In this document: in pieces, positions 18,284 through 20,778 of the stretch | Layout: every line of letters starts with the position of its first letter | Position numbering within the stretch: the stretch's first letter is position 1 | Source of the DNA: Desulfosudis oleivorans Hxd3 | GTDB taxonomy: Bacteria; Desulfobacterota; Desulfobacteria; Desulfobacterales; Desulfosudaceae | Direction: 5' to 3' | Length of the DNA stretch: 32,000 nucleotides | Assembly (NCBI RefSeq): GCF_000018405.1 | Contig: NC_009943.1 | Location: forward strand, 353,255 to 385,254 | Notes under the pieces: model-generated | The model's database searches: none | Seen by the model: only the letters and a program-made list of their open reading frames with translations | Told to the model about the DNA's origin: nothing | Translations under genes and position numbers: made by a program

Positions 18284-18583
18284 TCAGCGCAGGGCCGTGC
18301 CCAGCACGTACTCCTCGTAGACCGTAGGCCCTTCCTGGTAGACATTGAGCATGACCTCGAATTCGTTGCGCCGGGGATTGTTTTTCCACCGGTGCCAGCT
18401 TTCCATGTCCTGCCAGGTGCCGATGACCACCAGCTTTCGGGGGTCATCGTTCTGCATCAGGGTCTCGCCGGACACATACCCCGGCTGGGACATGGCGGCA
18501 AACCGCAGGTCGTGAAGCAGGGCCAGAATCTCGTCTGTGGCCCCTTGTCTGAAACGGCGCTTGATGATGATTTTTGCCAGCAT
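18284..18583 (-). CDS. ABM (antibiotic-biosynthesis-monooxygenase/Dabb) fold small protein, 99 aa
   Basis: MLAKIIIKRRF...LVVIGTWQDMESWHRW... with GGAAAGGAGAG RBS. The 203-aa ORF-track version (to 18895) runs on into the hexamer repeat and the tandem array and is rejected. Confidence 0.7.
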   Translation of the reverse strand: MLAKIIIKRRFRQGATDEILALLHDLRFAAMSQPGYVSGETLMQNDDPRKLVVIGTWQDMESWHRWKNNPRRNEFEVMLNVYQEGPTVYEEYVLGTALR

Positions 18584-18604: not shown

Positions 18605-18664
18605 ATCAAAATCGAAATCAAAATCGAAATCAAAATCGGGATCGCTATCGGTATCGGTATCGAA
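18605..18664. repeat. Hexamer-periodic repeat tract (ATCNNN)x10, locus B
   Basis: ATCAAA ATCGAA ATCAAA ATCGAA ATCAAA ATCGGG ATCGCT ATCGGT ATCGGT ATCGAA. Lies 22-81 nt upstream of the ABM start codon. Confidence 0.92.
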
Positions 18665-18775
18665 CCCGTGTGCGGTGAATTTTAATAGTGTTTCATATTT
18701 TACCAGACATGGTAGGCGGATGCCAGCAGCTACGGCCGGGTGGTTCCTTATGAATAAGAAGGCGGGAAAAGGCCT

Positions 18776-19794
18776 GTTTGTAGTGTGCCCGTAAGGGCAT
18801 CGCAATTGGACAGCCATAGAACGCCTGACGGCGTCACTACAAACCGGGGAAAGTGCGGAGCGAAGAAAATGTTTGTAGTGTGCCCGTAAGGGCATCGAAA
18901 CTGGACAGCCATAGAACGCCTGACGGCGTCACTACAAACCGGGGGATGTGCGGAGCGAAGAAACTGTTTGTAGTGTGCCCGTAAGGGCATCGCGATTGGA
19001 CAGCCGTAGAACGCCTGACGGCGTCACTACGAACCGGGGAAAGTGCGGAGCGAAGAAACTGTTTGTAGTGTGCCCGTAAGGGCATCGCGATTGGACAGCC
19101 GTAGAACGCCTGACGGCGTCACTACGAACCGGGGAAAGTGCGGAGCGAAGAAACTGTTTGTAGTGTGCCCGTAAGGGCATCGAAACTGGACAGCCGTAGA
19201 ACGCCTGACGGCGTCACTACAAACCGGGGAAAGTGCGGAGCGAAGAAACTGTTTGTAGTGTGCCCGTAAGGGCATCGAAACTGGACAGCCATAGAACGCC
19301 TGACGGCGTCACTACGAACCGGGGAAAGTGCGGAGCAAAGAAACTGTTTGTAGTGTGCCCGTAAGGGCATCGCAACTGGACAGCCAAAGAACGCCTGACG
19401 GCGTCACTACGAACCGGGGAAAGTGCGGAGCGAAGAAACTGTTTGTAGTGTGCCCGTAAGGGCATCGCGATTGGACAGCCGTAGAACGCCTGACGGCGTC
19501 ACTACAAACCGGGGAAAGTGCGGAGCGAAGAAAATGTTTGTAGTGTGCCCGTAAGGGCATCGAAACTGGACAGCCGTAGAACGCCTGACGGCGTCACTAC
19601 GAACCGGGGAAAGTGCGGAGCGAAGAAAATGTTTGTAGTGTGCCCGTAAGGGCATCGCAATTGGACAGCCATAGAACGCCTGACGGCGTCACTACGAACC
19701 GGGGGAGGTGCGGAGCGAAGAAACTGTTTGTAGTGTGCCCGTAAGGGCATCGCGATTGGACAGCCGTAGAACGCCTGACGGCGTCACTACAAAC
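18776..19794 (+). repeat. Tandem array: 10 full and 1 truncated copies of a 95-bp unit (69-nt multi-stem hairpin plus 26-nt purine-rich linker). Candidate structured-RNA array; strand assignment is tentative
   Basis: Units start at 18776, 18871, 18966, 19061, 19156, 19251, 19346, 19441, 19536, 19631 and 19726. 85 of 95 positions are invariant. GTTTGTAGTG pairs with CACTAC(A/G)AAC. Inner hairpins are TGCCC-GTAA-GGGCA and ACGCC-TGAC-GGCGT. The + strand has stops in all frames. Confidence 0.95.
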
Positions 19795-19878
19795 ACATTG
19801 AATTACAGGACCATAGCTGTTAGGCTGGCACAAAAAAAGCCCTGTTTTATATAACTGATAGACAATAAAGGATAAACC

Positions 19879-20778
19879 ATGCGAATTGTGACGCGCCCGG
19901 ACTTTGACGGCATTGTGTGCGCGGTCCTGCTTTACGATGTGGCCGACATCACGGCGCCCATTGCCTGGGTGGAGCCCAGCCAGATTCAGAAAAACGAGGT
20001 GAGCATCAAAAAAGGCGACATTCTCGCCAACCTGCCGTTTCATGAGAATTGTTCCCTCTGGTTCGACCACCACCACTCCAACCGGGTGGATGTTCCCTTT
20101 GAAGGGCTTTTCCGGGTGGCGCCGTCCGCCGCCGGGCTGGTGTATGAGTATTACAAAGAGAGGCTGAGCCGGGACTTTTCCGAACTGGTGGCCCAGGCCG
20201 ACAAGATTGATGCCGCGGACTTGTCCGCGGATGAGGTGGCCCGGCCCGAAGATCACCCCTATATCCTGCTCTCCATGACCATTGTCAACCACGACTGGTC
20301 TGAAGCGCCCTACTGGAACCTGCTGGTGGATCTGCTGGGCCGTCTGCCCATTGACCGGGTGATGGCCCATGACGCGGTCCAGGCCCGGTGCCGGCAGACC
20401 ATTGAAGACAACCGGAACCTGGCAGCCCACCTTAAAAAACACACCACCCTTTACGGCCACGTGGCGGTCACCGACTTTCGGGCCTTGGACGTTGCACCCA
20501 CGGGTAACCGGTTTCTGGCCTATTCGCTTTTTCCCGAAGCCGTGGTCAGCGTAAAAATTCGCCATCCGGCCGAAGACCGAAGCCGGGTCATTGTCAGCGT
20601 GGGCCACAGCATCTTCAACCGGGGGTGCAATGTCAACGTGGGGGAGATGCTTTCTCAATTTGAGGGCGGGGGCCACCGCGGGGCCGGGGCCTGCACCTTT
20701 TTGGCAGACAAAGCCGACGACTATATTCCCAGAATCATCGACGTCCTGGTAAAAAACGAGGAAAACGACACTGCGTGA
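19879..20778 (+). CDS. DHH/DHHA1-family phosphoesterase (NrnA/exopolyphosphatase-related)
   Basis: 299 aa. DFDG (motif I), WFDHHHSN (DHH motif) and a C-terminal FEGGGHRGAGA (GGGH of DHHA1). AAGGAT RBS. Confidence 0.85.
   Translation: MRIVTRPDFDGIVCAVLLYDVADITAPIAWVEPSQIQKNEVSIKKGDILANLPFHENCSLWFDHHHSNRVDVPFEGLFRVAPSAAGLVYEYYKERLSRDFSELVAQADKIDAADLSADEVARPEDHPYILLSMTIVNHDWSEAPYWNLLVDLLGRLPIDRVMAHDAVQARCRQTIEDNRNLAAHLKKHTTLYGHVAVTDFRALDVAPTGNRFLAYSLFPEAVVSVKIRHPAEDRSRVIVSVGHSIFNRGCNVNVGEMLSQFEGGGHRGAGACTFLADKADDYIPRIIDVLVKNEENDTA

Follow-up and report, generated by a model that had tools for sequence, protein, structure and literature searches.

Between two divergent genes of Desulfosudis oleivorans Hxd3 lies a tandem array of near-identical 95-nt units that can be drawn as multi-stem structures, which raises the question of whether it constitutes a new set of structured RNA genes or a cluster of repeats of a known kind. 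The array was analysed within a window of 32,000 nt, positions 353255-385254 of the complete 3.94-Mb genome (G000), and coordinates without a genome label refer to this window. A preliminary description, made from the letters of the window, had favoured RNAs read from the plus strand. Comparison with the rest of the genome, related genomes and metagenomes leads elsewhere: very probably, the array is a BIME-2-like cluster of repetitive extragenic palindromes (REPs) from a REP/RAYT system, RAYT being a REP-associated tyrosine transposase.

The Tandem Array and Its Variable Positions

TRF returned a single array at 18774-19794, with a period of 95, 10.7 copies, 95% matches, a score of 1818 and no indels. 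Counted from 18776, it comprises 11 units, ten of 95 nt and an eleventh of 69 nt, and exactly ten columns vary (28, 29, 31, 41, 42, 66, 75, 77, 87 and 94), both as the preliminary description had reported, down to the alleles of each unit. The array and the parts of its first unit are as follows.

18776..19794, plus strand: BIME-2-like array of 11 tandem REP dimers (10 x 95 nt and a last dimer of 69 nt), from TRF, the unit alignment and the family elsewhere in G000
18776..18800, plus strand: REP-A of unit 1, with head GTTTGTAGTG (containing GTAG), 5-bp stem TGCCC/GGGCA and loop GTAA; recurs every 95 nt; 68 exact and 5 loop-variant copies
18801..18819, no strand: inner spacer, unit nt 26-44, with the hypervariable block 28-31 and positions 41-42, from the unit alignment and family comparison
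18820..18844, minus strand: REP-B of unit 1, inverted, with minus-strand head GTTYGTAGTG, stem ACGCC/GGCGT and loop GTCA; 55 exact and 4 variant copies
18845..18870, no strand: 26-nt outer linker, one per dimer, variable at 75, 77, 87 and 94; common to the arrays flanking the RAYT gene

The 69-nt core of the unit joins two different GTAG-tagged REPs head to head, as a heterodimer. Read in its own orientation, each arm is composed of a GTAG-containing head of 10 nt and, after it, a hairpin with a perfect stem of 5 bp and a tetraloop. Arms A and B are both short GC-rich palindromes with GTAG 5' of the hairpin foot, as are the REPs of the GTAG superfamily (20-40 nt). Read in their own orientations, the loops are GTAA, GTGA, GCAA or GTCA (GYRA-type), and the stems are perfect 5-bp helices in more than 95% of copies. 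The closing helix of nt 1-10 with 60-69 in the proposed multi-stem RNA is formed by the inverted GTAG heads of the two REP hairpins. Position 66 falls within the REP-B head, whose consensus across genomes is GYTYGTAG. Y/R transitions in that head account for the A/G toggling at 66 and, in the sister arrays, at 68.

Variation is clustered along the unit rather than spread uniformly, since one of the 50 arm positions varies versus nine of the 45 positions in spacer and linker (Fisher P=0.0057), and the hot-spot pattern first described from the window is thus upheld. Columns 28-32, 39-44, 66 and 68 are variable in the other arrays of G000 as well. All four gametes are present at 14 of 21 informative site pairs, indicating that the alleles have been shuffled among units by recombination, gene conversion or recurrent mutation and supporting the earlier reading of the array as a product of gene conversion or recombination.

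Folding and the Strand Argument

On the RNA reading, the array would encode 11 copies of a 69-nt structured non-coding RNA on the plus strand, with nt 28-31 as a guide-like or specificity determinant in the joining strand and with G.U-tolerant substitutions that leave the fold intact. The proposed multi-stem fold is indeed the MFE structure of the unit, at -30.1 kcal/mol (z about -2). The loop of hairpin A varies among the GNRA forms GTAA, GTGA and GCAA only, and REPs can act as RNA elements when transcribed (PMC3733652). Against this, the minus strand folds about as well (-28.8 kcal/mol, z -2.4), and hairpin B has GNRA-type loops only on the minus strand, which makes the element symmetric at the DNA level.

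The case for the plus strand had rested on pairs T4/66 and T32/41, which toggle there between Watson-Crick and G.U. This toggling is real, but its claimed exclusion of the minus strand fails across the family, where C.A pairs occur. All changes in the head pairs of G000 run from U-A to U.G on the plus strand, as expected for such an RNA, with 25 U-A and 32 U.G at pair 4/66 and 50 U-A and 7 U.G at pair 2/68, most of these counts being array units related by descent. In addition, two toggling sites (three with position 68 of the sister arrays), each with a prior of 50%, are not significant alone. In other genomes the same two pairs are found as U-A, U.G and C-G, and also as C.A, a wobble on the minus strand only, which occurs in 2 of 20 cases in G320, once each in G222 and G001, and five times in G010. 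Uncompensated breaks of the 1-10/60-69 helix, which the preliminary description had named as contrary to its structure, are present in a minority of copies in G222, G010 and G001. Rare stem mutations are evenly split between plus-strand and minus-strand wobbles. In the head pairs, T.G (plus-strand wobble) outnumbers C.A (minus-strand wobble), and a strand-specific folding constraint may therefore exist.

Covariation gives a similar answer. Both heads read GTTC in G320 and GTTT in G000, but such a joint change is also expected from a co-evolving recognition protein and is not usable as base-pair covariation. Among 52 distinct copies from G000 and G001, RNAalifold recovered a consensus of the head helix and two hairpins, with no double-sided compensatory change in any helix and no consensus third stem, so that the small GG-ACAG-CC stem of the proposed fold finds no counterpart. 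A search of Rfam 15 returned no hit at the gathering score and, even at E<=10, nothing beyond a chance snoRNA match (E=4.2). Compensatory covariation, a match to a curated family and an orientation consistent with transcription, the marks of a structured RNA, are all absent. Together with the genomic context described below, these observations make an array of RNA genes distinctly unlikely.

A Dispersed REP Family in the Hxd3 Genome

The unit belongs to a family of about 78 copies at about 40 intergenic loci in G000, as found by nhmmer and BLAST. Counted by arm, there are 77 copies of A and 67 of B, with 57 A..B dimers. The family is thus high-copy, extragenic and dispersed, as REPs are, with a copy number toward the low end for REPs. 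A and B are also by far the commonest GTAG-hairpins of the genome (73 and 59 copies), the next family having 6. Five arrays contain 11, 12, 6, 3 and 3 units, the latter four at 2.1476-2.1530 Mb, and about 30 single or double copies are scattered along the chromosome. Inverted pairing of the arms with linkers and tandem reiteration of the dimer correspond to the BIME-2 layout, in which GTAG lies 5' of the palindrome and tandem REP/iREP pairs are joined by variable linkers that are well conserved within a locus (PMC3333891).

Conservation in the family follows the arms. In 23 dispersed copies, nt 1-25 are 99.3% and nt 45-69 are 98.0% identical to the consensus, versus about 58% pairwise identity for the 19-21-nt spacers of dispersed copies. 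Block 28-31 of the window array is therefore hypervariable as described, but it belongs to the inter-REP spacer, which varies throughout the family, and is not the specificity loop of an RNA.

With genes called by a codon-usage model, each of the 27 dimer loci falls between genes, in a genome with about 85% coding sequence. Nine of the 27 occupy convergent gaps, a class that makes up 14% of all gaps (P=0.0097). Where the flanking genes are co-directional, the element is sense to them in 4 cases and antisense in 10, which is not the pattern of a transcribed RNA, and the dimers have no replication-strand bias (13 co-oriented, 14 anti-oriented). The mixed orientation and the lack of replication bias fit a two-strand-symmetric, DNA-level element rather than an RNA gene with a defined strand.

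Taken together with its 26-nt outer linker, the window unit matches the units beside the RAYT gene at 83-90% identity, and spacer alleles such as CGCAATT are common to both. These similarities suggest that the window array was seeded from the RAYT-flanking pool.

Tandem hairpins of this kind might also suggest a degenerate CRISPR-like array or clustered integron attC sites, as the first 31 nt of some units (GTTT..hairpin..GAAAC) superficially resemble a CRISPR repeat and arm-A copies separate toxin-antitoxin cassettes at 2.225-2.237 Mb. The would-be spacers are identical between units, however, and copies are dispersed singly at about 40 loci. The consensus order of attC is RYYYAAC..GTTRRRY, and the ends of the units instead read GTTTG..CAAAC. 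The linked protein, furthermore, is a RAYT rather than a Cas protein or an integron integrase. The identical spacers, the single dispersed copies and the RAYT link effectively refute both possibilities, the probability of which is negligible.

The cassette region itself (L027, G000:C1:2225263-2237090) holds seven arm-A-only copies on one strand between cassette-like genes for PIN/VapC toxins, antitoxins, DUF4143-type ATPases and Fic. Each copy is part of a roughly 120-nt composite repeat with a (TTCATCA)n tract at its end, and the region has the look of an accessory island that REP-derived mosaics divide into sections. In another composite repeat, about 150 nt long and present in eight copies (G000:C1, at 24511, 1427418, 2565986, 2963392, 3319334, 3320302, 3338564 and 3796451), conserved flanks enclose arm A but no arm B.

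The RAYT Gene and Its REPtron

A gene of 197 aa at G000:2149005-2149598, 1.78 Mb from the window array, lies between a 6-unit and a 3-unit array, its ATG start only 10 nt past the last dimer. Its product matches the NCBIfam model NF047646, 'REP-associated tyrosine transposase', with 85.5 bits (cut-off 80) over G000:2149104-2149502. An HUH motif, NHYH, and a tyrosine motif, NYIHxNPVKHG, are invariant in four homologues and align to those of E. coli TnpA-REP 4ER8 (E=9e-8), so that the predicted protein has both the HUH motif and the putative catalytic tyrosine expected of a RAYT. Judged by its sequence, this HUH/Y1 gene is the single cognate RAYT of these REPs in the genome. The surrounding locus (L025) is arranged as follows.

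G000:C1:2146835-2153104, minus strand: in order, (GAATGAT)n heptad tract, 12-unit array, sigma-54 activator (domains GAF-AAA-HTH_8), 6-unit array, RAYT gene, 3-unit array
After the 3-unit array: vapBC-like pair on the other strand, then a further 3-unit array

Arrays of the same dimer on both sides of the RAYT gene are the defining feature of a REPtron, and RAYT genes flanked by these REPs are found in G000, at loci L116, L130 and L144, and in G010:C30. With its own RAYT gene in the same genome, encoding a DNA transposase as the cognate protein, the window array is very probably a repeat cluster of the ordinary selfish or domesticated type rather than a new set of RNA genes.

The gene escapes Pfam, as Y1_Tnp (PF01797) detects neither the G000 RAYT nor three metagenomic RAYTs described below. 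The four Y1 genes that this model does find in G000 do not adjoin these hairpins, and scans of G000, G001, G010, G222 and G320 with PF01797 yielded only Y1 genes with other hairpins or TIRs. In an all-against-all BLAST of the Pfam-detected Y1 proteins, none was common to all REP-bearing genomes. The doubt that these results had cast on a link to a RAYT was overturned by an arm scan of metagenome contigs and then by NF047646.

Three Y1-transposase genes of G000:C1 (921656-922666, 984240-985268 and 2266280-2267263) encode proteins of 330-340 aa with a long C-terminal extension and are flanked by terminal inverted repeats of the GGGGAC/GGGGTC type, without GTAG hairpins. They resemble the 'TIRYT/TIRtron' class (Di Nocera 2013, PMC3733652).

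Distribution in Other Genomes and Metagenomes

The arms are letter-identical in four other Desulfobacterales genomes. Within the order, an arm is multi-copy in 5 of 401 genomes, belonging to four families, and a reversed-pattern control gave 1 hit in total. In metagenomes, the exact 24-nt arm is present in at least 120 contigs, and in three of these, tandem dimers built from the same arms stand on either side of a RAYT ORF. These ORFs are 206-242 aa from stop to stop (about 200 aa from a conserved Met), score 81-90 bits with NF047646 (cut-off 80), and are 54-57% identical to the G000 RAYT. The RAYT of G010 is 68% identical to that of G000 and likewise flanked by the arms. G222 and G320 each have a RAYT adjoining the arms, and in G001 a contig edge carries a C-terminal RAYT fragment. 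Of 40 relatives, G010 alone was found to have a full-length close homologue of the RAYT, and the REP is present in G010 and G001 only. Several copies are common to G000 and G001 at orthologous sites.

The arms are modular in G010, where A-only arrays have a period of 45 and A/B arrays have periods of 86, 117 and 131 with differing spacers. Mosaics of this sort, with alternating orientations and tandem reiteration, are known from E. coli BIME-2 (PMC3333891) and from GTAG-REP clusters (PMC3733652). Each array of this genome is preceded by (GGAATGA)n tracts that overlap the stop codons of histidine-kinase/response-regulator genes. At loci L042-L061 of G320, the dimer spacer is AT-rich and 8-12 nt long, and the dimer sits inside a longer conserved element, with GGAATGCTTCCCTCT upstream and a hairpin with CATCATCAT downstream. 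The REP dimer of G320 spreads as part of this larger, MITE-like unit.

Other RAYTs in relatives are flanked by their own, different GTAG-hairpin heterodimers, namely L083 (G222:C53), L087 (G222:C27) and L031 (G001:C28). Their occurrence shows that the architecture is native to the order, and that several independent REP/RAYT systems coexist in it.

The arms are thus identical across families whose RAYTs are 54-68% identical. This letter identity in at least four families and in more than 120 metagenome contigs, together with the long arrays at promoters or between signalling genes, leaves room for the hairpin pair to have been co-opted for a host function rather than merely tolerated as a selfish repeat, unlikely as that is. 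In that case the hairpin pair might serve as a transcribed RNA or a DNA insulator, influence supercoiling, or regulate rayT and neighbouring genes, with the variable spacer for tuning.

The Insertion Site of the Window Array

The neighbours of the array are the following.

18284..18583, minus strand: ABM-domain gene, divergent left neighbour, from the gene and domain call
18726-18697, minus strand: promoter-like site of the ABM-domain gene, from the consensus scan
19798..19826, plus strand: TTGAAT-17-TAGGCT box, conserved at the orthologous locus that lacks an array; predicted promoter of the downstream gene
19879..20778, plus strand: 299-aa gene with a DHHH motif (DHH-like), right neighbour, conserved in Desulfobacterales

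The divergent arrangement of the ABM gene and its DHH-like neighbour recurs in relatives. In G002, of the same genus (locus L034, 80% identity), and in a Desulfococcus MAG (71%), the gap between them is 180-250 nt and without an array. The flanks of the array align colinearly with this array-free gap across an insertion point between a conserved GCGG and a conserved TTGAAT-17-TAsGCT box. The window array therefore consists of tandem REP dimers that were inserted, specifically in this lineage, into a short region of divergent promoters. In two closer MAGs the contigs break downstream of the array, L033 starting 28 nt before the DHH start and G001:C48 starting 75 nt past the array end, as would be expected if they carry the array.

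Three nucleotides separate the end of the array from the TTGAAT-17-TAGGCT box downstream of it, a predicted promoter that is not among the consensus-scan hits. Around the array, that scan found no plus-strand promoter and no terminator, only leftward promoter-like sites toward the ABM gene. Lying between two divergent promoters, the array need not belong to either mRNA. A plus-strand RNA is disfavoured here as well, as there is no plus-strand promoter-like site upstream, the array precedes the downstream gene's conserved -35-like box, and the locus is empty in the congener.

The position exactly between two divergent promoter regions would suit a domesticated DNA-level function, in which the array binds gyrase, IHF or a nucleoid protein, or insulates the divergent promoters. 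BIME-2 of E. coli binds gyrase, the large arrays of G000 and G010 adjoin signalling genes (GGDEF, sigma-54 activator, hybrid kinases), and the letter-identical arms despite divergent RAYTs could be taken in the same sense. However, the same gene pair does without the array in G002 and in the Desulfococcus MAG, and signalling genes are so common in these genomes that the adjacency may be due to chance. A function of this kind is compatible with a REP origin, and as an explanation of the array it is very improbable.

Two further features of the locus were observed. The 299-aa DHHH protein has no Pfam hit at E<=0.001 and is conserved beside the ABM gene across many Desulfobacterales (53-97% identity), with a 38%-identical counterpart in a Planctomycete MAG. 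Just left of the array, at 18605-18672, is a hexamer-periodic (ATCNNN)n tract with dozens of matching loci (85-100% identity) in the congeners G001 and G002. This tract is a separate dispersed repeat family and also occurs in the REP-less genome G002.

Proposed Origin and Comparison With Known REP Systems

The family, its architecture, its extragenic dispersal, the REPtron and the co-occurrence of RAYT and REP, all of them observed, frame a possible history of the window array. A unit would have been seeded at the locus by RAYT-mediated single-strand transposition or strand transfer, and its copies would next have been multiplied and scrambled through slippage, gene conversion or unequal recombination. 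By analogy with the E. coli system, the RAYT may read the GTAG head and hairpin on single-stranded DNA and cleave in the inverted REP and the linker. Strand transfer by TnpA-REP can yield linker variability and tandem copies (PMC3333891), and here RAYT strand transfer and unequal recombination may similarly amplify dimers in tandem and diversify their linkers, with recombination within the array homogenizing the units and reshuffling their few polymorphisms. Recognition by the RAYT would keep the arms invariant, leaving spacer and linker to drift freely or to be remodelled by cleavage and rejoining, which would explain the confinement of variation to 10 columns. The sequence of the window array is compatible with transposition and with recombination as its origin. 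A transcript-level or DNA-topology role may exist for the array, as for other REPs.

The closest counterpart is the E. coli BIME-2/tnpA-REP (yafM/rayT) REPtron (Ton-Hoang 2012, PMC3333891; 4ER8). In both systems GTAG stands 5' of the palindromes, two REP types alternate in inverted orientation with short linkers, and the dimers form tandem rows of up to about a dozen. Within one locus the copies are near-identical while linkers vary, and the Y1/HUH gene is flanked by the same arrays. Unlike the imperfect palindromes of 30-40 nt in E. coli, the hairpins here have a perfect 5-bp stem and a tetraloop, and the common 10-nt head (GTTYGTAGTG) closes the dimer on itself. The hosts differ, being sulfate reducers of the Desulfobacterales in this case, and the RAYT is a distant relative of the E. 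coli enzyme (E=9e-8 to 4ER8) that PF01797 misses. The E. coli enzyme also requires a stem mismatch (PMC3333891), which the perfect 5-bp helices of this family lack; the mismatch is a feature of that enzyme, not of the superfamily.

Similarities extend to the REPIN-RAYT system of Pseudomonas (Bertels and Rainey 2011, PMC3116915), in which the unit is likewise two inverted REPs and a spacer, the RAYT is single-copy, and copies are dispersed, extragenic and clustered and persist at orthologous sites between congeners. In contrast to that system, the unit described here is a heterodimer whose hairpins fold separately rather than as one long hairpin, its spacer is hypervariable between copies, and its arms are identical in several families of the order.

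Heterodimers of the head-to-head (HH) type, as well as clusters in which dimers recur together with adjoining DNA, have been described for GTAG-REPs, a superfamily with stems of 5-13 bp, loops of 2-20 nt and spacers of 8-38 bp (Di Nocera 2013, PMC3733652). The present family fits these lengths and shares with those heterodimers the GTAG on the outside, the differing stems, the clusters with flanking DNA and the preference for sites after genes and between convergent genes. In that paper the spacers of HH dimers are described as usually conserved, whereas the spacer here is the variable part. An analogy may also be drawn with the subterminal hairpins of IS200/IS605, which are recognised in single-stranded form by an HUH Y1 enzyme and whose foot has a short guide-like motif on its 5' side, although here no transposon body lies between the hairpins and the enzyme is single-copy and would act in trans.

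Implications

Elements of the REP/BIME/REPIN-with-RAYT kind are already well known, and the present case is mildly unusual in its very small perfect hairpins, its Pfam-invisible RAYT and its arms identical across families. For annotation, tandem arrays of GTAG-headed hairpins proposed as structured RNAs should first be tested against NCBIfam NF047646, and assembly breaks are to be expected beside such arrays, as in the two MAGs that break 28 and 75 nt downstream. The candidate 'new array of structured RNAs' is hereby removed and refiled as REP/RAYT, and a complete REP/RAYT system is documented in the Desulfobacterales.
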